The position numbers and the translations under genes were made by a program. The notes beneath the pieces are model-generated. The model did no database searches and had not been told where the DNA came from. It saw nothing but the letters and a program-made list of their open reading frames with translations. DNA of 14,112 nucleotides from Candidatus Heimdallarchaeota archaeon. Lineage in GTDB: Archaea; Asgardarchaeota; Heimdallarchaeia; JABLTI01. The DNA lies in contig JAUVZH010000029.1 of the NCBI GenBank assembly GCA_030602675.1, positions 1-14,112 of the forward strand, in the 5' to 3' direction. Shown piece after piece: positions 1 through 14,112 of this stretch. Position 1 is the stretch's first letter; the number at the start of each line of letters is the position of its first letter.

Positions 1-880
1 CTTCAGTCAATTTAAAATCAGTAATCTCTTCACTTGTTTTGCTACTCATACTTTCAAATAAAACAAAAATCTGATGATTTAATGCAGATTCCTCTTCTTC
101 CAGTATTCCCTTTTCACCAAGCAATTTGTTATGTTTGCTCACCAATTTTTCCAGTTGCTTGTATTTTTGATCATATTCTTTGTATGTTATTCTTAACCCC
201 AAAAGGTTCTTTTTATCATTTTTCATTTGAGTTTTCTTTTCAGTGATATTAGCTTCGATTTCTGGTAACTGTGTAAGATCTTTGCTAATAATGCCAATAT
301 AATTTTCAAGATTATTTATTTCTGAATTAATGATTTTCTCTACTTTAGATAAATTACTCCAAGCCTTTTCGTAACGATCTATTTGGAATAATCTGTCGAA
401 CAACTTCTTTCGTTCTTTATCTTTTGCTGTTACAATTTGACCAATTTCCCCTTGAGAAGCATATACTGCACTAATAAATGTTGTAGCATCTATATCCAAA
501 ATTTCTTCCATTTTGAGTCGAACTGCATTTCGTCCTTCTGCTATTGTCTCTTCCAGTGTTTCATTAATCAAAACTTGTGTTTGTGTTGCTCTTGTCTCTT
601 CTCTTTTAGTTAATTCGTCTGTTATTCTATAGTTGGAACCATCAACATTAAATCGAATAGTGATTTTACCTTGCTTCTCCCCGTACCTTATCATATCAAC
701 TAAATTTCTTCCGGAAACTGTTTCTCCAAATAACGATAGATAAATGCTTTCGAGAATAGTGCTTTTTCCTGCCCCATTCTCACCTATTAGGACATTATTT
801 CCTTGATAGAAATCTATTTTTTCATATTTGTAGGTCTTGATGTTCTCAAGTTCAATACTGGAAATTTCGAATGTTTTCAT
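1..880 (-). CDS. rad50: Rad50 ATPase, N-terminal 293 codons; the CDS continues beyond the left edge of the window
   Basis: Not in the ORF track because it is open-ended. I translated the reverse strand from the ATG at 880..878 and found no stop down to position 1. The product begins MKTFEISSIELENIKTYKYEKIDFYQGNNVLIGENGAGKSTILESIYLSLFGE (Walker A GENGAGKST). It continues through a Q-loop (SAVYASQGEI) and a KKLFDRLFQIDRYEKA block into Lys/Glu-rich coiled-coil-like sequence. A strong SD, AAGGAGGGGGAG, ends 5 nt before the ATG. The start lies 1 nt after the mre11 stop. Confidence 0.9.
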   Translation of the reverse strand, partial: MKTFEISSIELENIKTYKYEKIDFYQGNNVLIGENGAGKSTILESIYLSLFGETVSGRNLVDMIRYGEKQGKITIRFNVDGSNYRITDELTKREETRATQTQVLINETLEETIAEGRNAVRLKMEEILDIDATTFISAVYASQGEIGQIVTAKDKERKKLFDRLFQIDRYEKAWSNLSKVEKIINSEINNLENYIGIISKDLTQLPEIEANITEKKTQMKNDKKNLLGLRITYKEYDQKYKQLEKLVSKHNKLLGEKGILEEEESALNHQIFVLFESMSSKTSEEITDFKLTE

Positions 881-881
881 A

Positions 882-2300
882 CTACTCCCCCTCCTTAAAG
901 AAATGCTCTAAATCAGCCTGTTTTGTCACTTTATTGTTTTGATTAACAATTTTAGGTGGTCCGCTTACTGATTTTTTACTTGTTTTTGGTTGTTTTGCTG
1001 GCTGACTTTTGGATTTCTTTGTTTTGATTTTTGTAGTTGCAATTTTTTTGATATCAGATTCAGTTAATTGTGATGAAATTTCAGATACTAAATTATAAAT
1101 TGCCTTAACTTCATCTGCTAAATCCGATGATATTATTTTTTGCCCAAGAACCTTAATGGTTTCATTAGTTATGTCTAACCATTTGTTAACTGAACTCTTC
1201 TTGATGTTATATGATTTTTCTAGCAGTGCTTTTAATGCTTCTTCTGAGGTTAATCCTACTTTTGCTTTATCCAAAATGATGTTTGATACTTGCTGATTTG
1301 ATATTATATGCAGTGCTTTTGACTCTTTTATTGCTGGAAGTTTTGTAAAATTAACCAAGTTTTGCTTTCCTAAAGGTAATTCACCTACAAAATCATATCT
1401 AATAATGGCACCTTCTAAATCATGTTTCTTGACAAAAACATTAGCCTTTTCCATAATTTCATCGATCGTTGAATCATCTGTAAAATTGTATGTGAATCGT
1501 CCTTTTGGTCGAACATCAAATTCCTGTCTTTCAACTTTCAAATCCCAAGAATTTTCTTCTGGATTTAAAGTTGTTTTAATGCTATAATATCCTGATTTTC
1601 TTAAGAAACCATCTTTGTCTGGTTTTCCCCAATCGTTCAAACTTGTTTGTTCAGTTGAACCGGGGCAATAAATATTGTTTTCAGTTTCTTCCCATACTTT
1701 ATGATAGTGACCTAATGCTATGTAGTCAAAACCTATACTTGCTAATTGATAACCTGAAATATCAAAAATTGAATCACTTACTTGCCCTTGTAAATAACCA
1801 TGAAGTGCTAAAATATTGAATTTTGATCCATCAAACGGATTATTTCTTAAAACAGTTTCAATTACATCTCCAGTGGTTTTGCCGTACTCACCAATACCAG
1901 TAAACCGAATGTGCTCATTAATATCAATTGTTTCATCTTGAACATACTGAAGATAACCCAAATCATCTAGGAATTTCAGAACCGTACCACCAAATCTTTG
2001 AGCTTGAGCTTTTGAAGCATCATGATTTCCTCTAATAACATAAAAGGGAATATTTGCTTGTCTAAACTTGTCAAGTATTTGAATAGAAAAACGTAAAGCC
2101 CCAGGAGATGGTCTAAATTGGTGAAACAGATCACCACAATGAATAACAAAATCTGGTTTTTCTTCAATCATTAATTTTGTGCATTCATTCGCAGCTTCAA
2201 AGAAATCATACCACCGCTCTCTTTTTTGGTATTGAAAATAATCTAAATGCCAATCAGCAGTATGGCAGAAATGATATTCCTTATTCTTTTTCTCGCTAAT
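882..2300 (-). CDS. mre11: Mre11 nuclease (calcineurin-like phosphoesterase); 5' end unresolved, with the conservative ATG at 2171 and the homology-supported frame extending to 2303
   Basis: The ORF-track product carries Mre11 motifs: GDLFH, RGNHD, ILALHGY and LGHYH. My translation of the in-frame upstream stretch 2303..2172 gives KISEKKNKEYHFCHTADWHLDYFQYQKRERWYDFFEAANECTKL. This supplies the missing motif I (D-x-H within HTADWHLD). There is no ATG, GTG or TTG between the in-frame TAG at 2306..2304 and the ATG at 2171. An ATT at 2300..2298 sits 7 nt after an AGGTGA SD-like site at 2313..2308. Stop is TAG at 884..882. Confidence 0.85.
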   Translation of the reverse strand: MSEKKNKEYHFCHTADWHLDYFQYQKRERWYDFFEAANECTKLMIEEKPDFVIHCGDLFHQFRPSPGALRFSIQILDKFRQANIPFYVIRGNHDASKAQAQRFGGTVLKFLDDLGYLQYVQDETIDINEHIRFTGIGEYGKTTGDVIETVLRNNPFDGSKFNILALHGYLQGQVSDSIFDISGYQLASIGFDYIALGHYHKVWEETENNIYCPGSTEQTSLNDWGKPDKDGFLRKSGYYSIKTTLNPEENSWDLKVERQEFDVRPKGRFTYNFTDDSTIDEIMEKANVFVKKHDLEGAIIRYDFVGELPLGKQNLVNFTKLPAIKESKALHIISNQQVSNIILDKAKVGLTSEEALKALLEKSYNIKKSSVNKWLDITNETIKVLGQKIISSDLADEVKAIYNLVSEISSQLTESDIKKIATTKIKTKKSKSQPAKQPKTSKKSVSGPPKIVNQNNKVTKQADLEHFFKEGE

Positions 2301-2359
2301 TTTCTATTCACCTGTGAATTTTATTACTAAATTCTTCATTTTGGACAAATTGAGTTCCA

Positions 2360-4048
2360 TTATTTATCCAATTTAAAGTCATCTTCATATTTTTGTGGTT
2401 TTCTCATCGAACTTTTTTGTTTTTCAAGAGCTGCTTTCCAAGATTCAGTAATTTGAACTCCTTTACCTCCAAGTTTTCCATCAAATGTAGCTATACTAAC
2501 TAACGCTGGTATCGGTAAACTTGGACCAACTATTACTGCTTCTCCTACATTTAATGCTGGTAGGTCATTCAGTAAATCTTCGCTCATACTCTCACTTGAT
2601 CGTAAAATTTGTTGCTGATCATAAGGATTTACTATTTTTAGGATGATTTGTGTGTTACATTGTGATAACACATCACTATCTAATCTTCCAGGTCGTTGTG
2701 AAACGAGACCTAATCCCACACCGAACTTTCTTCCTTCTGCAGCAATCTGTTTTAGGATTGAAGATGATCTACCTGAACCAGGTATGAAGTTATGAGCTTC
2801 TTCTATAATCATTAAAACCGCACATGGTAATTTATGAGGTGTTAGTTCATTTCTTACTTGTGCTTTGCCAGCATTGAAAATCTTTCTGGCAATTAAATCA
2901 ACAATTGTTTGTTGAGTTTTGGAGCCTAATCCTGTTAGTGTGATAATACTTATTTGATTTGGTTTTACTAATGAGGGACCACTTGCATTATAAACAGGAA
3001 GTTCTGAACTTTTGGTTAATACATCTCTTGCAGGAGCAAGATCTATTCTTGAAAACAAACCAAATTTGGAATTCTCTAAACAATTTGCTTCCGTTTTACT
3101 GCTCTTTCTAATTTGCTCCTTTCCTTTATCATCTATAACTACATCTTCTCTTAGATCTTTTATTATAGCATTAATTTCATTTTTTAGATCTTGTAAATCC
3201 CAATCGACTTTCTTTTCTTGTAAACGCCAATAGGCTCTACTTAGTAAATCCCTTTGAATAGTTGCTTGCTCTGGTATCTCGAGAAGATCTAGAAGTGCAG
3301 TATGACTAAAATTACTTAATTTGAAAGCAATTCTTTGCCTTCCGGTTGTTCTTTTTGCTGAAAAAACAGCAATATTACCATTAATATTCTTATTTTTTAT
3401 AAATGGCACATAATCCTCATGCGGATCAACTATGACAACTGAACCTTGAAGATTATTGATTATCCTCGAGACAATTACAGCGACACTATAGGATTTACCA
3501 GCTCCTGTAATTGCTAGAACTGCAAAGTGTTTTGAGACCAATTCATCAACATCTAATTTTACTTCTACTCCTTTATGTGAACGTAATTCACCTACTGAGA
3601 TGTGCCCTTTTCCGAAGATTTTCGATAAGATTCCAGAAGGTGCTCGAGAGACTTTTGCACCTGGATAAGGTGGAAAACGTGGAGTAACAATGCGATCCCT
3701 TTCCTCATCTAAATAGCCTAGAATTCTTGCTGCTGCTCCCAATCGTTCTCCTTCTTCGATACGCCCGAGTAATTTAAGACGATCTATCGATTCAGGAGAT
3801 TTGATTAAACTTTCAACTAAGTTTTCATTACTTAGAGCTATTTTTGAAATCATAGCAATAACAGGTTTTGCTACAAGATTTTTAGGATAATCAATAACTA
3901 CTAGCTCACCTAACTCCAGAGGTGTTGTTCGAGCAATTTTAGGATCAACAATTAAATTAACCTCAGAGGGAGTTGAAATACCAACAATAATGGCTACAGC
4001 TTTATTATTATCTCGAGAATTGGATTTTTTAGGCAAAGTATTGAACAC
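2360..4048 (-). CDS. herA: HerA-type hexameric DNA helicase/translocase (FtsK/HerA ATPase superfamily)
   Basis: 562 aa with a GTG start at 4048..4046. Walker A is LAITGAGKSYS and the Walker B region is VLMIIEEAHNFIP. The N-terminal region is barrel-like (GELVVIDYP) and the C-terminal region contains GEAVIVGP. It sits immediately upstream of mre11-rad50, the classic archaeal arrangement. Confidence 0.9.
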   Translation of the reverse strand: MFNTLPKKSNSRDNNKAVAIIVGISTPSEVNLIVDPKIARTTPLELGELVVIDYPKNLVAKPVIAMISKIALSNENLVESLIKSPESIDRLKLLGRIEEGERLGAAARILGYLDEERDRIVTPRFPPYPGAKVSRAPSGILSKIFGKGHISVGELRSHKGVEVKLDVDELVSKHFAVLAITGAGKSYSVAVIVSRIINNLQGSVVIVDPHEDYVPFIKNKNINGNIAVFSAKRTTGRQRIAFKLSNFSHTALLDLLEIPEQATIQRDLLSRAYWRLQEKKVDWDLQDLKNEINAIIKDLREDVVIDDKGKEQIRKSSKTEANCLENSKFGLFSRIDLAPARDVLTKSSELPVYNASGPSLVKPNQISIITLTGLGSKTQQTIVDLIARKIFNAGKAQVRNELTPHKLPCAVLMIIEEAHNFIPGSGRSSSILKQIAAEGRKFGVGLGLVSQRPGRLDSDVLSQCNTQIILKIVNPYDQQQILRSSESMSEDLLNDLPALNVGEAVIVGPSLPIPALVSIATFDGKLGGKGVQITESWKAALEKQKSSMRKPQKYEDDFKLDK

Positions 4049-4132
4049 TCTCTTCGTTTCTACCTTCTGGGAGTAAAATATTAACTAATAATTTTTCGTA
4101 TTATCTTTAGTTCTTACCTATTAAATGAAGGG

Positions 4133-4420
4133 TTAAAGATACATATATCCTGCTAAGATACCTCCTCCTGATAGTAGCGAAATAGCAACTAAAACAATCC
4201 CCTTGACAATTGTTTTTTTACCATTACGTTCATCCCAACCAGTCGCCCACTGAATCGCTCCTACAATAGCCAACACTACTCCAATTGCAAAACAAATAGC
4301 TACTAAGAAAGCTATAGCGTTGCTTAGAATAGACTGAATGTTATTAGGAATGTCCTTTAAGTTTTCAATAATATCGAGCTTAACTTGCAAGAATTGATCC
4401 TTGGGTCTGGATATCATCAT
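4133..4420 (-). CDS. Small membrane protein, 95 aa, two predicted TM helices, unknown function
   Basis: The ORF has a polar N-terminal ~33 residues followed by two hydrophobic stretches, AIAFLVAICFAIGVVLAIVGAI and GIVLVAISLLSGGGILAGYMYL. They are separated by the charged loop QWATGWDERNGKKT. It is on the same strand as its neighbours, with short gaps to them. I recognise no family. Confidence 0.55.
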   Translation of the reverse strand: MMISRPKDQFLQVKLDIIENLKDIPNNIQSILSNAIAFLVAICFAIGVVLAIVGAIQWATGWDERNGKKTIVKGIVLVAISLLSGGGILAGYMYL

Positions 4421-4477
4421 GAATCAAATAAATGTAACAATTTGGGAATAAAAACCCTAAAGATTAGGACCTTTGAC

Positions 4478-5605
4478 TTATAGACCATGTTTTACGAAAG
4501 CTCCCATAAGAGCTAATGCAGTTGTTGAAAAGGCTATGATTATTCCTGTAGTCAGTGCTAAGTGCCAGTGTTTCATTTTAGATTTTGTAGTGAATGGTAT
4601 GTAAAGAGTATAACACCAAACACCGTATTGAATTAAAAAGACCCAATAGAGGGAATTAAAGGAAATGAATGCAAGAAAAGAACTTTTGTAGAGATCATAT
4701 TTTTTGATATAGGATAGGATGATCAAACCAATCCAGACAATTATGATTAATAAAGTAAGAATCATGCGAATAATATCAGCAGCACTTTCTGAGGAAAATG
4801 GTAGAGAAAGTAAAGCGAAAATTGGACCTAAATCATGCTCCCGAGTAACATGTACACCTAGAACCCCTTGAATGTAGGTTTCTAAATCATTTAAAAAAGG
4901 AATGCTAAACAGCAGAACAACGATTAACATTGTTGCTATCATAGCAAGAATCTTATCGAAATTGCGTTCACGAACATTTTGAAGGAAGAAGAAAGGAACA
5001 AGAATTAATGCAATAGGTTTAGTTAGAATTGCCAAACCAAGGAAGAAAGCTTCGAGGAAGAAATAATCTTGATCATGGAATATGAAAGCAAGTAGAATAA
5101 AAACAAACATCAAAGAATCAAACTTACCATGCATAGAACTAGTCATCAAAACCATGGGAGTAATAAACCAAACAGCAATGGGTATTTTTAACCGCCAAAC
5201 ATTTTCTACTTTTGGTTTTAGTAAAATGTAAAGTAAAATAACTACTTGAATATCGAATAAGAGAATTAGACCTTTAATAATCGGAAAGAACATCCCTTCG
5301 GGGAAAACAAGCAAAACTAAAGAGCTAATATACATCCATAAAGGAAAATAAGCATAAAAGTGTTTAATACCCTTATTTTGGAAACTCTCAAGAGTAGTTT
5401 CATATGGATTTTCACCATTAAGGAAAAGTTCAGCTGCTTGTTTCCAGACATTCATATCTGACGAGGTAAAGTCCCAGAGAAAAATACGAACGATTATACC
5501 TGCGAGAATAATGCTACCAAAAACAAGCCAGGAGGTATTACTTGTAGTGAAAAATTCTTTCAGCTTTGGAAATCTTGAATCGGTTATTGCTCTTTCTTCG
5601 TACAT
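4478..5605 (-). CDS. Polytopic GT-C-fold glycosyl/mannosyltransferase, PIG-M / PIG-U / DUF2029-like
   Basis: 375 aa, hydrophobic throughout (about 9-11 TM segments by eye). The first extracytoplasmic loop reads FTSSDMNVWKQAAELFLNGENPYE...HFYAYFPLWMY. This matches the D-x-x-V-(F/W)-x-x-AA-x-L-x(3)-G-x-x-PY ... Y-x-Y-x-PL signature I remember from PIG-M ([30 protein letters not shown]) and related GT-C families. Confidence 0.55.
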   Translation of the reverse strand: MYEERAITDSRFPKLKEFFTTSNTSWLVFGSIILAGIIVRIFLWDFTSSDMNVWKQAAELFLNGENPYETTLESFQNKGIKHFYAYFPLWMYISSLVLLVFPEGMFFPIIKGLILLFDIQVVILLYILLKPKVENVWRLKIPIAVWFITPMVLMTSSMHGKFDSLMFVFILLAFIFHDQDYFFLEAFFLGLAILTKPIALILVPFFFLQNVRERNFDKILAMIATMLIVVLLFSIPFLNDLETYIQGVLGVHVTREHDLGPIFALLSLPFSSESAADIIRMILTLLIIIVWIGLIILSYIKKYDLYKSSFLAFISFNSLYWVFLIQYGVWCYTLYIPFTTKSKMKHWHLALTTGIIIAFSTTALALMGAFVKHGL

Positions 5606-5797
5606 GTTTTCAACTCAATTAGAAGTCAAATTATTAGTATATTAACACCTACACATTTGATGAAAATGTTGAGAATAAATATTAAAAGATATTAGATAAA
5701 CTTAGAAAATACAATGATGTTTTTGATGTCATTTCTGGAAGAAAATAAAAAAATACACTAAAATGTTATCTTTTATGCATTATTTTTACTTTCGCCT

Positions 5798-5805
5798 TTT
5801 AAATA
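5798..5805 (+). promoter_or_regulatory. Candidate archaeal TATA box (TTTAAATA) for the left 48-codon gene
   Basis: TTTAAATA matches the archaeal TTTAWATA consensus and is preceded by the G/C patch CGCC. It lies about 50 nt upstream of the GTG at 5858, which would leave a short leader containing GGAG (5844..5847). AT-rich background makes chance matches likely. Confidence 0.3.
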
Positions 5806-5843
5806 TATTCTATTTTGGAATCTTATTTTGAAACATTATATTT

Positions 5844-6004
5844 GGAGACTAAAAAACGTGAAAAAAATCAATCCTAAAATACTCGGTATAACCTTCATGA
5901 TTTTATCAATGCTTGTTGCTGGTGGTTTAGCAGCAAAGACTGCTATCGCAACTCCTGGTTCAGCAATTGGAGATGATTCAAATCCAGGTAATGGAGGAAA
6001 TTAA
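5844..6004. repeat. Left arm of a diverged 161-nt inverted repeat (SD plus 48-codon gene)
   Basis: This stretch aligns colinearly with the reverse complement of 7872..8032. The GGAG position, start position, length and stop position are all identical. The first 66 coding nt differ at 8 positions by my count. Confidence 0.75.
5858..6004 (+). CDS. 48-aa small protein with N-terminal signal-peptide/TM-like segment and G/P/N/D-rich tail (twin-peptide copy L)
   Basis: My translation, with a GTG start, is MKKINPKILGITFMILSMLVAGGLAAKTAIATPGSAIGDDSNPGNGGN followed by a stop. GGAG lies exactly 10 nt upstream. A paralogue sits at 7872..8018 (32/48 identical residues), and the differences in the conserved N-terminal part are mostly synonymous. 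A T-rich tract follows the stop. Confidence 0.7.
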   Translation: MKKINPKILGITFMILSMLVAGGLAAKTAIATPGSAIGDDSNPGNGGN

Positions 6005-6115
6005 TTTATTTTTTCCTCTTTAATTTATTTTATTTAGTAAGAACAAGTATCTATTTATAAATTAATTTTTTAAGAAAGCTTAAATGTGATATGAATTAAA
6101 TTATCACAGATAAAT

Positions 6116-7846
6116 TTGAATGTTGTAAAATCTAAAAAAGAGATAAGAAATGAAATTCAGATAGTATTTAATGAGATTAAAGAAGAAACAGGTTGGGAAT
6201 TTATAAAATTACCAAATGAATTATATATTGATATAGGTGATGCATCAGAATATTACGAAAGCTTTGGTGTCAACAGAACAAAAGAGAAATCAATATTTGG
6301 TTCATGGATAGAAGATGTAAAACATGAATATAACAAAGATGTAATTTGGGAAATGGTAATAATAAGAGAAGCATTTTCACTTTTCATTGAAGAAAAAATA
6401 TTATATTGCGAATTGAGTGAATTAACAAATTTCTTTTTAAATATTGTTGCAATTAGCTACATTCAAAAGAAATATCCAGATATTGAATTAAATGTAAAAA
6501 TCACAACTGTAAGATCGCGATTTAGAGCACAACGGGAAGGTTTAAACGAAAGAGAAAAAGCGCTTCATTTAAAAATTGGGGCGCTTCTAGATGAAGTTAT
6601 AAACCAGAGAATTTCATACAAACTTATTTTAAATACATATTTTCATTACCTTGAAGATTATGATAAGAAGGATTTTGATGTCATTGAATTACTAGAAGAT
6701 TTTTCAAGATATTTATCAAGTAGCTCCGAGGAAATTGCTGCACCCATTTTTCTAAAAGAAAAAACAAAAAGGGTTTTTAAAGAACTATATAAAGGTGGAT
6801 ATAAAACAACAGCACTTAAAATAGCTGAAAGACTTAATGTCAATCAATCAACTATATCTAGACAATTGAGCAAAATTGATTCAAGATTCTATGCTAAGTG
6901 GAGAGCAATGAAAAATTGGAAAAATCTTGGTTTATATACACATTTAATTATAGTTAAGCTTCCGATTGATGATAAAAATAAAATTACTGGAATAACAAAG
7001 GTATTAATGGAAAATAGATATATTTTTCAAATTTATGAAGGTAAAAATAATGAAAATATATTCATTTATACAATTCTTCATTGTCCTTTAATTGTTGCAC
7101 AAAATATTGAAAATAAACTTTCTAGATTACTAAAGAAGGGAATAATTACTTCTTTTGTGATTAAACCTATCGTAAACACAACATACAAAACTGCTGTTGT
7201 TACAAAACGATTTAAACATTCAATAGAGAATTTTAAAAAGCTATTAAACAATGAAATCCCTTGCGATAGAATCTGTTTATGGAATACAGATATTTTTCAA
7301 AAAACAGATATAACAATATTAGACAAAAATGACAAAGATTTACTACACTTTCTATCTATTTTAATATCAAACTCTATTAAACAAAGCGGTGTTTATGGTT
7401 GTTGGGTACCTAAGACTAAGCAGCTTTTAGAAAAGAACAATATTGATATTAATAATGCTCAAGAATCTGCATCATTCTTGAACAAATTTAGAAATCAAGC
7501 AATGGAAAGAAATCTGTTAGACTATATGATAATGGTTTCATTAAATACAGCAACTTCAAACTATTTAATTATACATATTAAACATAATCCAAAGGACAAC
7601 ATTATAAAGAAATTAAGTGACGATCTTTCTTGTTTTACTTCAATTGTATTTTTATCTTCATATCAAGACCTAATAATATCATTAATTGGACCTCAGTATA
7701 GTGATTCATTAACAAAAATTATAATCGATAGAATAAAAAAAGATAATATTGATTTTGAATATTTCTCATGTCAAGTAAAGAATTGGCGTTATCTCCCATT
7801 AAATGAATTATATGATTTCGAAAGCAAAAAATGGTTGATAAAATAA
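6116..7846 (+). CDS. 576-aa putative transcription regulator: helical N-terminal domain of unknown family plus two tandem HTH + Lrp/AsnC(RAM)-like units
   Basis: The TTG start at 6116 is the only canonical start before residue 79. A clear HTH is present: YKTTALKIAERLNVNQSTISRQLSKI. It is followed by RFYAKWRAMKNWKNLGLYTHLIIVKLP...ITGITKVLMENRYIFQIYEGKNNENIFIYTILHCP, which fits the Lrp/AsnC linker and beta-alpha-beta-beta-alpha-beta effector-domain pattern. A second unit starts at ILDKNDKDLLHFLSIL, continues through ERNLLDYMIMVSLNTATSNYLIIHIKHNP and ends at SSYQDLIISLIG. Confidence 0.6.
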   Translation: MNVVKSKKEIRNEIQIVFNEIKEETGWEFIKLPNELYIDIGDASEYYESFGVNRTKEKSIFGSWIEDVKHEYNKDVIWEMVIIREAFSLFIEEKILYCELSELTNFFLNIVAISYIQKKYPDIELNVKITTVRSRFRAQREGLNEREKALHLKIGALLDEVINQRISYKLILNTYFHYLEDYDKKDFDVIELLEDFSRYLSSSSEEIAAPIFLKEKTKRVFKELYKGGYKTTALKIAERLNVNQSTISRQLSKIDSRFYAKWRAMKNWKNLGLYTHLIIVKLPIDDKNKITGITKVLMENRYIFQIYEGKNNENIFIYTILHCPLIVAQNIENKLSRLLKKGIITSFVIKPIVNTTYKTAVVTKRFKHSIENFKKLLNNEIPCDRICLWNTDIFQKTDITILDKNDKDLLHFLSILISNSIKQSGVYGCWVPKTKQLLEKNNIDINNAQESASFLNKFRNQAMERNLLDYMIMVSLNTATSNYLIIHIKHNPKDNIIKKLSDDLSCFTSIVFLSSYQDLIISLIGPQYSDSLTKIIIDRIKKDNIDFEYFSCQVKNWRYLPLNELYDFESKKWLIK

Positions 7847-7871
7847 TAAAAAAAATATTGAAAAGAGGTTC

Positions 7872-8018
7872 TTATTCTCCTCCATTTCCTGGATTGTCAT
7901 CAGATGTCATTCCTGCAGCGCCCGGTGAAATAGCAGTTTTTATTCCAAAACTACCAGCTACAAGCATTGATAAGATCATGAAAGTTATTCCGAGAATTTT
8001 AGGATTAAGTTTTTTCAT
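7872..8018 (-). CDS. 48-aa small protein, paralogue of 5858..6004 (twin-peptide copy R)
   Basis: My reverse-strand translation is MKKLNPKILGITFMILSMLVAGSFGIKTAISPGAAGMTSDDNPGNGGE followed by a stop. ATG is at 8018..8016, GGAG lies 10 nt upstream (8032..8029), and a TATAAATA-like box is at 8075..8068. The plus-strand ORF-track entry 7831..8025 is its antisense shadow. Confidence 0.7.
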   Translation of the reverse strand: MKKLNPKILGITFMILSMLVAGSFGIKTAISPGAAGMTSDDNPGNGGE

Positions 8019-8032
8019 TTTATAGTTGCTCC
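7872..8032. repeat. Right arm of the diverged 161-nt inverted repeat
   Basis: This is the reverse-complement partner of 5844..6004. See the left-arm entry. Confidence 0.75.
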
Positions 8033-8067
8033 ATTATTTAATTATCAAAGTATAATCTGAAATCTAG

Positions 8068-8075
8068 TATTTATA
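8068..8075 (-). promoter_or_regulatory. Candidate TATA box (TATAAATA on the minus strand) for the right 48-codon gene
   Basis: It occupies the same relative position, about 50 nt upstream of the start, as the TATA-like box of the left copy. Specificity is low in AT-rich DNA. Confidence 0.25.
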
Positions 8076-8132
8076 CGGAAATGTTGAAAAATAATTGTAC
8101 ACAAAGAAGAGTTGAAAGTGATTTTTATCGAA

Positions 8133-8852
8133 TTATGCACTTTCTTCTATTCTTTCGGATATATCTCCAAATTTCCTTTCTTCTTTTGCAATGAGTCGTT
8201 TAATGTTATCCCTGTGTCTGAAGAGAATAAAAACTCCTGCTAAGAACCCTCCGATTAAGAGTGGTATGCATGTAATAATATCAAACTTCATTATATAGTA
8301 GGTTTCGAGAAAGATGAATATTGGCAAAGTTGGAGTAGTAACCACATTTGCTAGTGATGTATATCTTGTTGTAAAAACAATTGTGAACCACACTACAGCT
8401 AACCCAACTGTTGATACTGGTACGAAGTTAAGGAATACTCCTGCAGTTGTTGCCATACCTTTCCCACCCTTAAATTTTAGCCACACAGGATAGTTGTGTC
8501 CTAATACTGACATTATTCCTGCTCCTACTACTACTGCTTGTCCTATTGGATCTGTAAAACCGAGAGTGTACACTTTTATTGGATTTGGTTGTATTACCAC
8601 TAATCCTACTATCAGTCTTGCTGCCCAAGCCAGTACTCCTCCTTTGATTACTACATCTCCTATGATTGTTAAAGCAGCTGCTTTTTTCCCTATTAGTCTA
8701 TAAACATTTGAAAAACCGGTATTCCCACTCCCATAATCTCTAATGTCAATTCCTTTCATTATCTTTCCTAATACCCATCCCGTTGGAAAGCTTCCTACCA
8801 GATAACTTCCTATTAGAACTAATACGTATACTACTGCTTCGTGTATTGCCAT
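8133..8852 (-). CDS. plsY: Glycerol-3-phosphate acyltransferase PlsY (acyl-phosphate dependent)
   Basis: 239 aa and multi-TM. The PlsY signature motifs are present: GSFPTGW, DIRDYGSGNTGFSN, GDVVIKG, and GHNYPVWLKFKGGKGMATTAG. A C-terminal HRDNIKRLIAKEE block is also present. An SD-like AGGAAG lies upstream of the ATG at 8852. Confidence 0.9.
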   Translation of the reverse strand: MAIHEAVVYVLVLIGSYLVGSFPTGWVLGKIMKGIDIRDYGSGNTGFSNVYRLIGKKAAALTIIGDVVIKGGVLAWAARLIVGLVVIQPNPIKVYTLGFTDPIGQAVVVGAGIMSVLGHNYPVWLKFKGGKGMATTAGVFLNFVPVSTVGLAVVWFTIVFTTRYTSLANVVTTPTLPIFIFLETYYIMKFDIITCIPLLIGGFLAGVFILFRHRDNIKRLIAKEERKFGDISERIEESA

Positions 8853-8920
8853 TTTATTATACTACTTCCTGTTTCATTCAATTATTTTATTGTTTTTTAA
8901 AAGAGTTCCGCTTATACTTA

Positions 8921-9763
8921 CTACTTTTTTATATATGTGAAGAACAGTGATCCTGGTCCTAAATGGCTTCCTACTACTGGTCCTACTAATCCTATGTATT
9001 GCACTCTGCATCTAAATGTTCCTTCCACTCTTCTTCTGAATACTTCTGCTACGTCTGGCATGTTTCCATGCGTCAATGCTATTATTGATGTGCTATCCAA
9101 TCCTTCTTCTTTCAGGTGTTCTATCATCCAATCCATTGCTCCCTCTGCTCCTGGAACTGTTGTTAAGCTTGATGTTTCTCCTTCAGCTATTGTTAGTATT
9201 GGCACTCTTCCTAATAATCTCCCTACTAATCCTCTTGCTCTACCTATTCTTCCTCCTTTTACTAGATACTTTAACGTGCTTGGAAAGCCTATTACTCTCA
9301 CGTGTTTTATTGCAGTCTTTACTATATCACATACCTCATCAATAGTTAATCCTTCATTTACTGCCCATGCTGCCATTAATACTACCAAACCTAATGATGC
9401 TCCTGTAGCAAAGGAGTCGAAAATCCTGATATCCATCATTGGTAGCATGCTTCTGGCTTGTTCTGCTGATTCTATTGTAAAACTCATTTGTCTCGAGATA
9501 TGTATTGAGACTATTGTTTCTGCTTCGCTTGTAGCATCTTCATATGCTTCAAAAAACAGTGCTGGTGATGGTGGGTTCGTTGAAGGAGTATCTCTTAGGA
9601 AAGGCATTTTATCGTAGAATTCTTCTGCTGTAAGGTTAATTCCTGCAGTAAATGTCTCTTCATCCATAAAAACTTTCAATGGTACAACTATTATCCCTAA
9701 TTCTTCCACTACTTTATCTGGCAAATCGCATGTACTATCAGTTACTATCTTGACCTTTTGCAA
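8921..9763 (-). CDS. degV: DegV-family fatty-acid-binding protein (FakB-like)
   Basis: 280 aa with a TTG start at 9763 preceded by GAGGAAAG. The N-terminus KIVTDSTCDLPDKVVEELGIIVVPLKV is the canonical DegV opening. Length and the remaining blocks (e.g. KGGRIG) fit the family. Confidence 0.88.
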   Translation of the reverse strand: MQKVKIVTDSTCDLPDKVVEELGIIVVPLKVFMDEETFTAGINLTAEEFYDKMPFLRDTPSTNPPSPALFFEAYEDATSEAETIVSIHISRQMSFTIESAEQARSMLPMMDIRIFDSFATGASLGLVVLMAAWAVNEGLTIDEVCDIVKTAIKHVRVIGFPSTLKYLVKGGRIGRARGLVGRLLGRVPILTIAEGETSSLTTVPGAEGAMDWMIEHLKEEGLDSTSIIALTHGNMPDVAEVFRRRVEGTFRCRVQYIGLVGPVVGSHLGPGSLFFTYIKK

Positions 9764-9828
9764 TGCCTACTTTCCTCAAACCATTAACATTAGCATTTAG
9801 CACTATTGCAATAATAAAAGTATTTGAT

Positions 9829-9867
9829 AAAAAAAAAGAGTATTATTTCCTCCAAAAAGGAGGAAAT
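9829..9867 (-). terminator. Hairpin plus oligo-T downstream of the fakA-like gene
   Basis: A perfect 9-bp stem, ATTTCCTCC (9845..9853) pairing with GGAGGAAAT (9859..9867), has a 5-nt AAAAA loop. On the minus strand it is followed after 7 nt by a T9 run (plus-strand A9 at 9829..9837). It sits 19 nt after the fakA-like stop and upstream of the degV start. Confidence 0.5.
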
Positions 9868-9885
9868 TTATTTCTATATTTAATT

Positions 9886-10827
9886 TTAACTTGCTTCTTC
9901 TACGAATAAGAATTCTCTGTGTTGTTTTGACATGTCATCAATCTTGAGTCGGGATATCGCACCATGTTCTTTGCATCGTTTTATTAGTACTTTTGGTTCA
10001 TTTGTATGTATGTGGACTCGTATCATATTATCATTCTTTGCCACTACTAATGATCCACCCATGGTACCAAGCATTTCTCTTGCGAATTCTGCTGTTAGAT
10101 CATCTGATTCAATGATAAACTCTGTACAGAATTGATATTCATCATCTTCTTCTGTATCTCGAGCTATTGCTTTAACTTCAGCTACTTCACCGACATCATC
10201 AAGATCTTCATTCTTGAAGGCTTTAATCCATCCTTCCATAATATAGACGAATCCTTGTCCTCCAGCGTCTACTACTCCTGCTTTTTTGAGCACTGGTAGT
10301 AATTCTGGTGTTTTTTCAAGGGTTCCTTGTGCAGCTTCATATGATGTATCTAGCATATCTAAGAAACTAGAGCCATTTTTTGCAGCTAAACTTGCTGCTT
10401 CAGCTGATTTTCTTATTACGGTTAAAATGGTTCCTTCTTGTGGATTAAGAACTGCTTCATATGCTTTTGCTGCGCCATCAACAAAAGCTTGTGAGAATTC
10501 TGCTGGTCCTATTTCGCTATAATTATCAAGAGAATTACTAAATCCACCAAAAAACTGTGATAATATAACTCCTGAATTTCCGGTTGCACCCATGAATGAT
10601 CCACGGGCAATTAATTGTGCTGTTTCTATTGTATTTGAGGCTTCATTGTTATCTAATTCTTCAATAATAGCCTCTACTGTTAAGTACATGTTTGCTCCTG
10701 TGTCACCGTCAGCAACTGGAAAAACATTTATTGCATTTAAGTGTCTGCGATACTTTTTCAGCAGATTTGCGGAAGCGCGCATCATATCTGATAATAGTTC
10801 GCCACAGAATAATTGAAGTGTTGCCAT
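9886..10827 (-). CDS. fakA: Dak2/DhaL-domain protein resembling the N-terminal and middle domains of fatty acid kinase FakA (YloV family), lacking the C-terminal domain
   Basis: 313 aa. The Dak2 signature LNAINVFPVADGDTGANM and GATGNSGVILSQFF are present. The C-terminal part (YQFCTEFII...GGSLVVAKNDNMIRVHIHTNEP...ISRLKIDDMSKQH) matches the block that follows the Dak2 domain in YloV/FakA proteins as I remember them. Canonical FakA is about 550 aa. Confidence 0.75.
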   Translation of the reverse strand: MATLQLFCGELLSDMMRASANLLKKYRRHLNAINVFPVADGDTGANMYLTVEAIIEELDNNEASNTIETAQLIARGSFMGATGNSGVILSQFFGGFSNSLDNYSEIGPAEFSQAFVDGAAKAYEAVLNPQEGTILTVIRKSAEAASLAAKNGSSFLDMLDTSYEAAQGTLEKTPELLPVLKKAGVVDAGGQGFVYIMEGWIKAFKNEDLDDVGEVAEVKAIARDTEEDDEYQFCTEFIIESDDLTAEFAREMLGTMGGSLVVAKNDNMIRVHIHTNEPKVLIKRCKEHGAISRLKIDDMSKQHREFLFVEEAS

Positions 10828-11259
10828 TTTTATATGTCTCCTGTTTATTTTTGGTATAAAACTATCTTTTTACCAATTTCTAATCTTTATTTATCTATGA
10901 CACATTTAAACATTTCTTTTACGACTAAAAAATACTATGAAAACGCGTCACAATATGCGAAAAAATTCTTTAAATATACGAAAATTGATGTTTTTATTGT
11001 TGATTAATTTACTCTTTAGAAGATTTTCTGTTGAAAAAAGTGCGAATTCTTTTGTCAAAAAAAGCATTTTTTTACTAAATTGCTTTATTTGAGTTTTTTA
11101 TAGTTGACTAAAATATTTAACTTTAACGATTTATATTAATATATATTTGAAAAAATAATAATAGGTTTGTGATATTAAATCAAAGTAATGTAAAAAATTA
11201 ATTAATTGTTGGCTTTTTTGGAAGATTTAGTGAATAAAAATTTATAAGATAGTGAAAAT

Positions 11260-12108
11260 ATGAGATTTGGTGCCCATATATCAATTTCAGGTTCAATAGC
11301 TAATTCAATCCCAAGAGCTATAGATTTAGGGTGTGACACTTTTCAGATTTTTACTCGAAATCCACGTAGTTGGACATCAAAAGAATTAACAAATGAAAGG
11401 ATTTTGGAGTTTAAAATGAATATTTCAAGCTCAGATCTTAAACCAGTCTTTGTACATATGCCATATCTGCCAAATTTAGCTAGTCCTGATCCTGAAATGT
11501 GGGAAAAATCGATTTTTTCTTTAAAAGAGGAGCTAAATAGATGCGATTTACTTGAAATTCCCTATATTGTTACCCATCTAGGCAGTCCCAAAACATCTGG
11601 TAAGGAAAAAAGTGTAGAAAAAGTGATTCAATCTTTGAATAAAGCACTTACTAATTACAATGGAAATACAACAATTTTACTTGAGAATACTGCAGGAAAG
11701 AATGAATCTTTAGGATCAAACATTGATGATATTTGTAATATTATTACAAAAACAGAGGTCCAAGATAAACTCGGTTTATGCTTGGATACTTGTCATGCAT
11801 TTGCTTCTGGTTATGATTTAAGAGATCAAACTGTTATTACTAAACTGATTGAACAAATAGATGGTTGTATTGGTTTGAATAAACTTCTATTAATACATGC
11901 AAATGATGCAAAATTTGACTTAGGTGAAGGAAGAGACAGACATGAGCACATTGGTTTAGGTAAAATTGGTGAAATAGGATTTAAATTACTGCTAAAAGAA
12001 AAAAAACTTAGAAAAGTCCCCTTTATTTGTGAAACACCTGTTGATGAAAGACGGGATGGTAAAGGGAATTTGGAATATTTAAGGAAATTACTAGAAAAAG
12101 CTAAATGA
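11260..12108 (+). CDS. nfo: Endonuclease IV (AP endonuclease family 2, TIM barrel)
   Basis: 282 aa. It opens MRFGAHISISGS...DTFQIFTRNPRSW. The metal-ligand blocks VHMPYLPNLAS, THLGS, LENTAG, LDTCHAFASGYD, IHANDAK and GRDRHEHIGLGKIG are all present and in the expected order for Nfo. Confidence 0.92.
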   Translation: MRFGAHISISGSIANSIPRAIDLGCDTFQIFTRNPRSWTSKELTNERILEFKMNISSSDLKPVFVHMPYLPNLASPDPEMWEKSIFSLKEELNRCDLLEIPYIVTHLGSPKTSGKEKSVEKVIQSLNKALTNYNGNTTILLENTAGKNESLGSNIDDICNIITKTEVQDKLGLCLDTCHAFASGYDLRDQTVITKLIEQIDGCIGLNKLLLIHANDAKFDLGEGRDRHEHIGLGKIGEIGFKLLLKEKKLRKVPFICETPVDERRDGKGNLEYLRKLLEKAK

Positions 12109-12127
12109 GATAAACTTCATCGCGTAA

Positions 12128-13267
12128 TTATGCGAAAACATCACATGTGCTTGCTTCTCTGGCAATTATTGGTGCTAAATAATCCATCTTTTTCGAGAAA
12201 ATGGGATTCATACTCTTTGCTATCGTAACAATTATGCTCATTTTTTCACTGTTAAACATAGGTGCAACTGTACTAATGTCACCCTTTGATACTTCTTTTC
12301 TCATTGCTAATTCAGCTAAAATACTTGCACTTGTGATTATTTCACTTATTTTGTCATTTACCCTTTGAACTACAGCTTTTTCATCTCTTCCTTGAAGATT
12401 TGATAATAAATCTTTGCAGAATTTACTCGAATCTCCACCTGATACTTTGCCCTTTAATAGATCAACTACAACAGCATCATCATATGCTTTAGCAATGTTC
12501 CTTTTTGTTCCAATTAAATCGGCTTCTACGATTTGATTTGTCCAAAAAACCTTTTTTAATTCTTTATGCGGGGCAAAAATCTCGAGACTAGCAATTGCAA
12601 TTTCGGTCATTACTTCATCGCCTGTCACAATTACAGGTTTCCCAATTAAAATAGCCATAATTGCTTTGTCTAGATCCTTTTTTATGACCTTATTTAGAAA
12701 CTGCATACTACCTTTAGTCTTTGATTTAGTTATTGTTATTTTTCTAGATGCATAAAATTCCTCAATTTCTACTTTATATGATTGAATGTCTAACAAAGAA
12801 TCAATTTTTTGTTTAATTAGATTTGGTAATGATTTGCCGAAAACATATTTCTCTCTGATTAGATTGCTAACTCTCTTGCATTGTGTAGAGAGAAATGGTG
12901 CCATCCTATACATTTGAAGTTGTTCTTTTGAATCCATAAGAACAATTAATGAACAAGATCTTTGACCACCTCTTATTTTTGGAGCAGGAATTGTGAATAA
13001 ATATGAAAATGCAATCATATTTTGCTTGCTAAAGGGAATAATTGACTCACCACAAAGCTCACTTTTATCATCTGTGTGTAATGATAAAGAACCTATCATT
13101 ACTTTAACAGCTATTTCGCTTGCAGATTGATCATTTAGAAACTTATGATAAGCACTTATAGGACCAATTGCATCATCAAATGTTGCGAAACAAACTGACA
13201 CCTTATTTTCTGATTGCAATTTTACATTCCTACTGTTATTTTTTAGAAGTTGTGGATTAAATGTCAT
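12128..13267 (-). CDS. Folliculin-like two-lobed protein (N-terminal longin/uDENN-like domain plus C-terminal DENN-like domain)
   Basis: 379 aa. The N-terminal lobe contains VSVCFATFDDAIGPISAY and later AFSYLFTIPAPKIRGGQRSCSLIVLMDSKEQL...APFLSTQCKRVSNLIREK. Compare human FLCN as I recall it: VALCHFCELHGPRTLF and [46 protein letters not shown]. The C-terminal lobe contains IMAILIGKPVIVTGDEVMTEIAIASLEIFAP...DLIGTKRNI...DAVVVDL. Compare FLCN: [33 protein letters not shown]...FLGLSPHV...FAVIVEV. The ATG at 13267 overlaps the upstream stop (ATGA), with the SD AAGGGGG 8 nt upstream. Confidence 0.6.
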   Translation of the reverse strand: MTFNPQLLKNNSRNVKLQSENKVSVCFATFDDAIGPISAYHKFLNDQSASEIAVKVMIGSLSLHTDDKSELCGESIIPFSKQNMIAFSYLFTIPAPKIRGGQRSCSLIVLMDSKEQLQMYRMAPFLSTQCKRVSNLIREKYVFGKSLPNLIKQKIDSLLDIQSYKVEIEEFYASRKITITKSKTKGSMQFLNKVIKKDLDKAIMAILIGKPVIVTGDEVMTEIAIASLEIFAPHKELKKVFWTNQIVEADLIGTKRNIAKAYDDAVVVDLLKGKVSGGDSSKFCKDLLSNLQGRDEKAVVQRVNDKISEIITSASILAELAMRKEVSKGDISTVAPMFNSEKMSIIVTIAKSMNPIFSKKMDYLAPIIAREASTCDVFA

Positions 13268-13506
13268 TCAAAGCCCCCTTCTGATTTGGTTCCATATAGA
13301 CAAATCATAGAAGTTAAAGTTCTTCTTGATTCGTGAGTACTTTGGATTTTTTGGCTATGTTGACATTTGTAACAATTTGATACAATAAGTTTTGAATTAC
13401 TTTGAGGGCACTGAATTTCTTTGAATTTAATGTTTTTTTTATGTACAGCTGCGTTTTTTTCTGATCTTTTTGCTTTAGAAAAATTCTCAACGTTATGCAT
13501 CAACAA
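13264..13506 (-). CDS. Small basic Cys/His-containing protein (78-80 aa), unknown function, translationally coupled to the folliculin-like gene
   Basis: The ORF's stop overlaps the downstream ATG by 4 nt (ATGA at 13267..13264). The start is either TTG at 13506 or ATG at 13500. It contains C-x11-C-x2-C-x-H (IQCPQSNSKLIVSNCYKCQH), a possible but non-canonical metal site. I recognise no family. Confidence 0.5.
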   Translation of the reverse strand: MLMHNVENFSKAKRSEKNAAVHKKNIKFKEIQCPQSNSKLIVSNCYKCQHSQKIQSTHESRRTLTSMICLYGTKSEGGFE

Positions 13507-13599
13507 CTTACATTCCCAAGTAGTATTTTCTGAACTGTTAACTCATAAAATATTCTAAATTTTAACTTAAAAACCCAAACTTTTTGAAATAAATCATAA

Positions 13600-14091
13600 T
13601 TAGTTATTAATCACTTTAAGTAATCTCTCTTTAAATTTCGAATCAGCAAAATTAAATATCTTTACTTCTCCCCATCCAACATTTTTAGCATATTTCTTAA
13701 TTAAGTCAACATGATCTTTTTTATTAGTAATAATAACAGCAAGTCCATCTTTCTTCATCTTTAATGTAGCAGCAGCAATTAATGCTTTTAATTCGTCCTT
13801 TTTTTCTTGTAGAATCGATGTATTATTTTCTGTTACTATGATAGCATCATTGCACCATATACTACCTACTATTGCAGATTTGGGTATCTCAAAAGCAAAC
13901 TGCCAGCTTTTTTTTGTTAAACCAAATTCATTCCAATTTGGAAAGTCTATTCGTCTTATTACTGTTTTAATTCGATCCTTTCTACATATTCGTCTAATAG
14001 TTTCGTAAATTATTTTCTGCTCCATGTAAGGAGTTGAAGAAAATATATGGAACGATCCTGAAGGATATGAAATGCTTTGTTTATATAGCAT
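13600..14091 (-). CDS. Hypothetical 163-aa protein with an alternating alpha/beta pattern, unknown family
   Basis: A complete ORF with an ATG at 14091, on the same strand as and 93 nt upstream of the small Cys protein gene. It contains the segments WQFAFEIPKSAIVGSIWCNDAIIVTENN and LAVIITNKKDHVDLIKKYAK. Any longin/roadblock-like reading is only a guess from secondary-structure periodicity. Confidence 0.6.
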   Translation of the reverse strand: MLYKQSISYPSGSFHIFSSTPYMEQKIIYETIRRICRKDRIKTVIRRIDFPNWNEFGLTKKSWQFAFEIPKSAIVGSIWCNDAIIVTENNTSILQEKKDELKALIAAATLKMKKDGLAVIITNKKDHVDLIKKYAKNVGWGEVKIFNFADSKFKERLLKVINN

Positions 14092-14112
14092 GCCTGTTTT
14101 GACTAATTTATT

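Follow-up and report, generated by a model that had tools for sequence, protein, structure and literature searches.

A compact folliculin/SMCR8-type longin-DENN protein encoded in a conserved gene cassette of Heimdallarchaeota

We analysed a stretch of DNA from Candidatus Heimdallarchaeota archaeon (GenBank assembly GCA_030602675.1, contig JAUVZH010000029.1, positions 1 to 14,112; hereafter the window), a 14.1-kb sequence that is essentially the entire contig. Our results support the conclusion that the gene at 12128-13267 encodes a compact Heimdallarchaeial longin-DENN protein of the folliculin (FLCN)/SMCR8 type. An earlier note on the same DNA, made from its letters without database searches, had read the product as a full two-lobe FLCN-like longin-DENN protein, and Pfam, the Pfam matches of its relatives, the predicted structure and the Foldseek comparison all agree with this reading. 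The 379-residue open reading frame (ORF) described there is real, but its strand needs correction: the plus-strand frame over 12128-13267 is riddled with stops, and the gene lies on the minus strand. Longin-DENN GTPase-activating proteins (GAPs; i.e. FLCN-FNIP, SMCR8-C9orf72 and GATOR1) control the Rag and Arf GTPases of lysosomal nutrient signalling. Such GAPs in Heimdallarchaeia would bear on the pre-eukaryotic origin of the nutrient-signalling machinery. The gene and its parts are as follows.

12128-13267, minus strand: gene of the FLCN/SMCR8-type longin-DENN protein, 379 amino acids plus stop (ORF, Pfam, model and Foldseek)
12848-13204, minus strand: longin lobe, residues 22-140 (model and Foldseek; Pfam Folliculin at 81-140)
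13160-13165, minus strand: GP motif, G35-P36, at the start of beta 2, invariant in 30 orthologues
12959-12973, minus strand: RGGQR loop, residues 99-103, between beta 4 and beta 5, with R99 as candidate arginine finger
12707-12847, minus strand: inter-lobe linker, residues 141-187 (in the model, helices H149-159 and H161-175, then a low-confidence loop)
12131-12706, minus strand: DENN lobe, residues 188-379 (in the model, 188-291 form an alpha/beta core and 296-378 are entirely helical)

A search for close homologues returned 33 proteins (61-100% identity), all from Asgard or Heimdall metagenome-assembled genomes (MAGs). Those with names are nearly all labelled Heimdallarchaeota or Asgard group archaeon, with one protein labelled Thorarchaeota and one locus Bathyarchaeia; the labels of close homologues and loci point to Heimdallarchaeota and bear out the earlier guess of an Asgard host. 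One orthologue with 96% identity sits on a 1.55-Mb contig, and a public Heimdall MAG is the source of orthologue P0015. Orthologues were seen in Heimdall MAGs only, and distant paralogues are spread through Asgard. An exhaustive phmmer search extended the family to 191 cluster representatives at E <= 1e-3, down to ~22% identity, and the distant relatives with a source name are all Asgard (Hodarchaeales, Hermodarchaeota, Promethearchaeota and Jordarchaeum). A profile search of a 5.8-billion-protein database gave mostly the already found orthologues again. Conservation was scored over 30 orthologues and, for the wider family, in an alignment of 64 sequences drawn from the 191 phmmer representatives (hereafter A2). 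In one Heimdall MAG, an orthologue (P0016) is accompanied by a paralogue (P0185) that has a VRGGKR loop; next to the window gene itself there is no paralogue.

Some records in this set are unusual in label or architecture. The protein labelled Thorarchaeota (P0026) and the locus labelled Bathyarchaeia (L014) are 75-78% identical to the Heimdall orthologues, and both labels are probably public annotation or binning errors. The orthologue P0006 carries the JGI name 'polyhydroxyalkanoate synthesis regulator phasin', which is probably an annotation error. Some Hodarchaeota relatives (P0040 and P0045) have an additional ~170-residue N-terminal domain before the longin-DENN unit, and P0066 (763 residues) appears to hold two DENN-like units; no GTPase family is matched by any of these extensions.

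Family membership is indicated by several profile comparisons. The Pfam Folliculin model (PF11704) scores 27.7 bits on residues 81-140, above its gathering score of 23.3 (E 2.8e-6); this match is partial and covers model positions 43-100 of 166. The second Pfam match, C9orf72-like, lies below threshold (16.9 versus a cut-off of 27). Individual Pfam matches among the 64 members of A2 are to Folliculin (8), C9orf72-like (5) and Folliculin_C (4; best E 5.9e-6), and precomputed SMCR8_C matches are present on several homologues, including P0029 and P0035. The Pfam uDENN, DENN and dDENN models match neither the window protein (E up to 1) nor the 64 relatives (E up to 0.01). Hence the profile check suggested in the earlier note came out positive for Folliculin (above gathering) and, in relatives, for Folliculin_C and SMCR8_C, and negative for the Pfam DENN models. 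Searched against PDB sequences, the A2 profile finds the crystal structure of a Lokiarchaeal longin domain (8yqg; E 3.9e-5) and human SMCR8 (E 1.5e-4), the latter with its best-scoring stretch in the DENN core (SMCR8 723-798); FLCN is not found in this search. A single-sequence phmmer search of the PDB sequences gives no match, and NCBIfam has no model for the FLCN-like protein. A literature search for '8YQG' found nothing.

The earlier note had based its reading on four blocks: residues 25-36 (VCFATFDDAIGP), 87-112 (FSYLF...LMD), 206-233 (ILIGKP...IFAP) and 264-270 (DAVVVDL), all of which are present. The window protein was compared with a human FLCN query that differed from PDB chain 6ulg_L at one of 579 residues, which was corrected before use. 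BLASTP against human FLCN is not significant (E 0.84). The best Smith-Waterman alignment is the longin 'hallmark' block, with a score of 52 and R99 paired with R164. This score is equalled by 9 of 500 shuffles of the full-length sequence and by none of 500 when only the longin halves are aligned, so this block is marginally significant by itself. The DENN block fares differently: pairwise it is at chance level (445 of 500 shuffles), but its register is recovered both by hhalign and by the family profile against SMCR8. As the block does not rise above chance in pairwise alignment, it needs profile or fold evidence. With hhalign, the family profile matches the single FLCN sequence in the DENN core only (203-256 to FLCN 365-422; E 0.006, probability 6%). 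The DAVVVDL region contains a beta strand (266-269) in the model.

An AlphaFold model built with a deep alignment has a mean predicted local distance difference test score (pLDDT) of 89.9 and a predicted template modelling score (pTM) of 0.66. A first model, built with close orthologues only (pLDDT 62.6, residues 170-281 unmodelled), was dropped in favour of it. The longin lobe has the topology beta-beta-alpha-beta-beta-beta-alpha (E24-31, E35-42, H46-61, E73-79, E84-94, E102-112 and H113-140), and the block-mean pLDDT of residues 24-140 is mostly 81-97 with a dip at 61-70. In the linker, the pLDDT drops to ~55 near residues 171-180.

In the Foldseek comparison with the PDB, the top match is human FLCN (8dhb_J; E 1.9e-10) over ~385 columns, with further FLCN matches to 6nzd_H and 6ulg_L (E 8.1e-9 and 9.5e-9). 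These are followed by C9orf72 (2.3e-8), DENND1A/B and DENND10 (~7e-7 to 9e-7), FNIP2 and SMCR8, and the top 15 neighbours are a full set of longin-DENN proteins. The FLCN C-terminal domain (3v42_A) is matched with E 1.8e-4 and TMt 0.58. The longin lobe also matches the Lokiarchaeal longin 8yqg (TMt 0.66) and the Lst4 longin (4zy8), while chains of the GATOR1/SEA complex are matched over ~137-174 columns, i.e. approximately the longin lobe, with E values of 3e-3 to 0.17. The fold expected by the earlier reader, a longin lobe plus a DENN lobe, is thus present in the model, and human FLCN is the closest solved structure.

We then focused on the two motifs that mark GAP-type longins. According to PMC12290439, a GP motif at the beta 1/beta 2 junction is specific to GAP-type longins, and the arginine fingers of FLCN and SMCR8 are R164 and R147, respectively. 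The position of G35-P36 in the window protein coincides with the GP site of GAP-type longins given in that work. In the wider family (n=64), G is present in 46 and P in 49 of the sequences at the GP motif. R99, G100 and R103 are invariant in the orthologues. R99 aligns with FLCN R164 in the Smith-Waterman alignment and shares a profile column with SMCR8 R147 (in ARGFVR); the finger-region segments compared are 87-112 of the window protein (FSYLFTIPAPKIRGGQRSCSLIVLMD), FLCN 152-178 and SMCR8 about 133-162. The model places this candidate finger residue in the hairpin loop that connects E84-94 and E102-112. The most conserved positions of the wider family are all in the DENN lobe (P233, D250, G253 and P355; n=64).

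FLCN (PDB 8dhb, 6nzd, 6ulg and 3v42) is an Arg164-dependent GAP for RagC/D and is complexed with FNIP. The window protein shares with human FLCN the longin-then-DENN order and the aligned positions R99/R164, GP/HGP and PAPKIRGGQRSCSL. Unlike human FLCN, it has 379 instead of 579 residues, without FLCN's long insertions and with an identity of 16% (Foldseek), and it has no adjacent FNIP-like gene and no Ragulator or mTOR context. SMCR8 together with C9orf72 (CSW complex; PDB 6lt0, 7mge and 7o2w) is an Arg147-dependent GAP for Arf and Rab GTPases. The likeness to SMCR8 consists of the profile match to the DENN core, the alignment of the RG-loop column with R147 and the SMCR8_C matches in orthologues or relatives. 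By contrast, SMCR8 has 937 residues with a large disordered insertion, and no WDR41-like partner was seen near the window gene.

The DENND1A/B Rab35 exchange factors and DENND10 (PDB 3tw8, 6ekk and 8p0v) also have the full-length longin (uDENN) plus DENN fold. However, they give weaker matches than FLCN and C9orf72 (identity 9-11%), and there is no DENN-family Pfam match; DENND proteins are described as being without the GP motif (PMC12290439). In contrast to NPRL2/NPRL3 (GATOR1), for which similarity is confined to the longin lobe, the C-terminal lobe of the window protein matches DENN proteins. The signals for affinity to FLCN or to SMCR8 are mixed: Pfam and Foldseek favour FLCN, while the profile search of PDB sequences finds SMCR8. 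The name FLCN-like is used here without claiming orthology to FLCN rather than to SMCR8.

Two genes immediately upstream form a cassette with the FLCN-like gene.

13264-13500, minus strand: 78-residue four-cysteine small protein, candidate partner; its stop and the start of the FLCN-like gene share 4 nt (ATGA)
13600-14112, minus strand: 3' part (170 residues) of a ~420-residue protein truncated at the end of the window; candidate member of the cassette

The order ~420-residue protein, 78-residue protein, FLCN-like protein is kept in 11 of 11 orthologous loci with a captured upstream flank, and in each of them the 78-residue gene lies directly upstream of the FLCN-like gene. The small protein has four cysteines (C33, C45, C48 and C69) that are invariant across four loci, and a conserved RTLTSxIC motif; its start is a conserved ATG (M3), while the mechanical ORF list begins two codons upstream at a TTG. 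No significant Pfam or PDB sequence match was found for it. In the ~420-residue protein, full length in L002 (8403-9674), L003 and L004, a hydrophobic N-terminal segment that is a putative membrane anchor is joined by a long, acidic linker of low complexity to a conserved C-terminal domain of ~200 residues. Neither Pfam nor the PDB sequences gave a match for this protein, and its homologue search added only three proteins. Across the Heimdall loci, conservation is highest for the FLCN-like protein (65-96% identity), compared with 29-90% and 38-94% for its two cassette partners and 51-92% for the neighbouring nfo product.

Judging from the overlapping stop and start, the 78-residue and FLCN-like genes are probably translationally coupled. 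This overlap suggests, speculatively, that the small protein could be a stoichiometric partner, and the hydrophobic segment of the ~420-residue protein suggests, equally speculatively, a possible membrane anchor. One may go further and imagine the cassette as encoding a membrane-tethered GTPase-regulator complex in which the two partners would serve for dimerization and membrane anchoring in place of FNIP and Ragulator, an idea that we regard as improbable. If true, the FLCN module of lysosomes would have a minimal archaeal precursor in this complex.

With regard to function, our moderately confident proposal is that the protein is a small-GTPase regulator, most likely a GAP that uses R99, that it is probably dimeric and that the 78-residue gene is probably coupled to it. 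It would act on a small GTPase encoded elsewhere in the genome (Rag/Gtr-like or Arf-related), most likely with R99 inserted into the nucleotide pocket. A dimer formed through the longin and DENN lobes would be probable by analogy with FLCN-FNIP, SMCR8-C9orf72 and NPRL2-NPRL3; the PDB entry of the Lokiarchaeal longin (8yqg) contains a dimer. The ~420-residue upstream protein may be co-expressed and could supply localization. We infer the GAP activity from sequence. A GAP function has been predicted for the FLCN/SMCR8-type class, and shared GAP activity on ArfR or Rag/Gtr GTPases has been raised as a possibility (PMC12290439).

Several observations weigh against this proposal. The finger column holds an arginine in 20 of the 64 wider-family members, in RGG or RRGG subfamilies, and with arginine in about a third of the family, GAP activity would be no family-wide property. 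A candidate GTPase is also missing nearby. The statement in the earlier note that the window holds no GTPase gene is correct for every ORF scanned; small GTPase or roadblock genes were not found within 10 kb in L001-L004, nor near the distant relatives P0060, P0035, P0043, P0044 and P0039 (flanks of 6-10 kb scanned per locus), and no GTPase domain is fused to any of 40 longer relatives. The structural match is limited in global terms: FLCN has a global TM-score of 0.35 with a root-mean-square deviation (rmsd) of >20 Å across the full-length alignment, which indicates that the lobes superpose and the whole molecule does not. Global TM-scores are ~0.35-0.41 overall, with C9orf72 best (0.40-0.41) and at the lowest full-length rmsd (9 Å). 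Finally, Liu et al. (bioRxiv 10.1101/2020.10.19.343400) proposed a guanine nucleotide exchange factor (GEF) function, not a GAP function, for the Asgard DENN module.

A true longin-DENN homologue that acts as a GEF, or as a scaffold or adaptor sensing the nucleotide state, in the manner of DENND1 for Rab35, is the main alternative, possible but clearly less probable. It is in line with the proposal of Liu et al., with the strong fold matches to the DENND1A/B-Rab35 GEF structures and DENND10 (E ~7e-7), and with wider-family conservation that peaks in the DENN lobe (P233, D250, G253 and P355) and not at the arginine. However, the top fold and profile matches are to the GAP-type proteins FLCN, SMCR8 and C9orf72, and both the RGxxR loop and the GP motif, the latter reported as specific to GAP longins (PMC12290439), are invariant in the orthogroup. 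Two further explanations concern the homology itself. That the likeness to folliculin arose by chance or convergence in an unrelated fold family could be suspected from the BLASTP E value of 0.84, the 6% hhalign probability against single FLCN, a DENN block within the range of shuffles and the poor first AlphaFold model from a shallow alignment; it is scarcely credible given a Pfam model above threshold, the profile match to SMCR8, related Pfam families in relatives, a confident model and 15 top structural neighbours that are all longin-DENN proteins. That the gene is a eukaryotic contaminant in the assembly, or was recently acquired from a eukaryote, could be suspected for a protein related to FLCN, SMCR8 and DENN proteins, which were long considered eukaryote-specific, but is very unlikely. 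The gene is flanked by archaeal genes (nfo, HerA-Mre11-Rad50 and the FakA/DegV/PlsY cluster), the same neighbourhood recurs in 12 loci of different Heimdall MAGs, one of them on the 1.55-Mb contig, and the 191 distant relatives are Asgard wherever a source name is given. A further point against it is that pairwise similarity to human FLCN is not significant by BLASTP (E 0.84), with 16% identity in Foldseek. We reject contamination on the basis of the synteny.

DENN proteins across Asgard were reported by Liu et al. (2020/2021), and FLCN/SMCR8-type longins of Heimdallarchaeia with the GP motif and an arginine finger are described in PMC12290439 (Traffic 2025), within a set of 15 Asgard longins. 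The window protein resembles this published FLCN-like class in lineage, domain organization, GP motif and arginine finger, and is most simply regarded as a member of the described Heimdall class, its exact orthogroup among the published sequences being unconfirmed. Its gene arrangement differs from that of the DENN operon of Liu et al. (LAMTOR1-like roadblock, Rab-like GTPase and DENN). The novelty implied in the earlier note does not hold, because Heimdall FLCN-like proteins already appear in both sources and the finding is therefore known. The available parts of Liu et al. and PMC12290439 hold no mention of the cassette, and the conserved cassette with its two uncharacterized partner genes is the only possible addition to published knowledge. 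The protein is nevertheless a clean, compact and highly conserved example with both catalytic-site motifs, and a good candidate for the biochemistry of GTP hydrolysis.

The remaining genes of the window are typical for such an archaeon and encode Rad50, Mre11, HerA, a GT87-like membrane protein, a 576-residue helix-turn-helix (HTH) protein, PlsY, DegV, a FakA-like kinase and the nfo product. The main features are as follows.

11260-12108, plus strand: nfo, endonuclease IV (TIGR00587, 267 bits), also at 1326-2147 in L005 and 59-733 in L006
8133-10827, minus strand: bacterial-type lipid gene cluster (FakA-like kinase, DegV/FakB-like protein and PlsY)
1-4048, minus strand: archaeal double-strand-break repair operon (HerA 2360-4048, Mre11 882-2300, Rad50 N-terminus 1 to ~883)
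6116-7846, plus strand: 576-residue protein that starts at a TTG and whose weak central HTH stays below the Pfam cut-offs
8937-9617 and 9076-9345, plus strand: long ORFs antisense to the DegV gene (226 and 89 residues), low-complexity and rich in Leu/Ser/Pro

The nfo gene adjoins the FLCN-like gene in convergent orientation in nearly all Heimdall loci, and also adjoins the distant Jordarchaeum relative P0060, there in divergent orientation. This long-range synteny is unexpected, with no obvious functional link between the two genes.

The lipid cluster suggests, from the sequence families of its products, a fatty-acid kinase combined with an acyl-phosphate:glycerol-3-phosphate acyltransferase, and is relevant to the 'lipid divide' between archaea and bacteria. 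PlsY scores 156 bits against an equivalog cut-off of 137. The FakA-like kinase (313 residues) covers positions 1-299 of the 530-position YloV model, and its C-terminal third is absent. L001 and L003 keep the cluster, and L004 keeps part of it, without a called DegV gene. The two ORFs antisense to DegV are almost certainly shadow ORFs, not genes.

In the repair operon, the Rad50 N-terminus contains the Walker A motif GENGAGKST, and phosphoesterase motif I of Mre11 (HTADWHLD) lies upstream of the first ATG, GTG or TTG. Only an ATT at 2300 yields the 472-residue Mre11 called in L001, which suggests a non-canonical start. The 576-residue protein has no family match in Pfam or NCBIfam; its gene, which L001 and L003 also have in conserved form, occupies the part of the window with the highest AT content (GC ~26%). 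The entire block from FakA to the 576-residue gene is inverted in L003 relative to the window.

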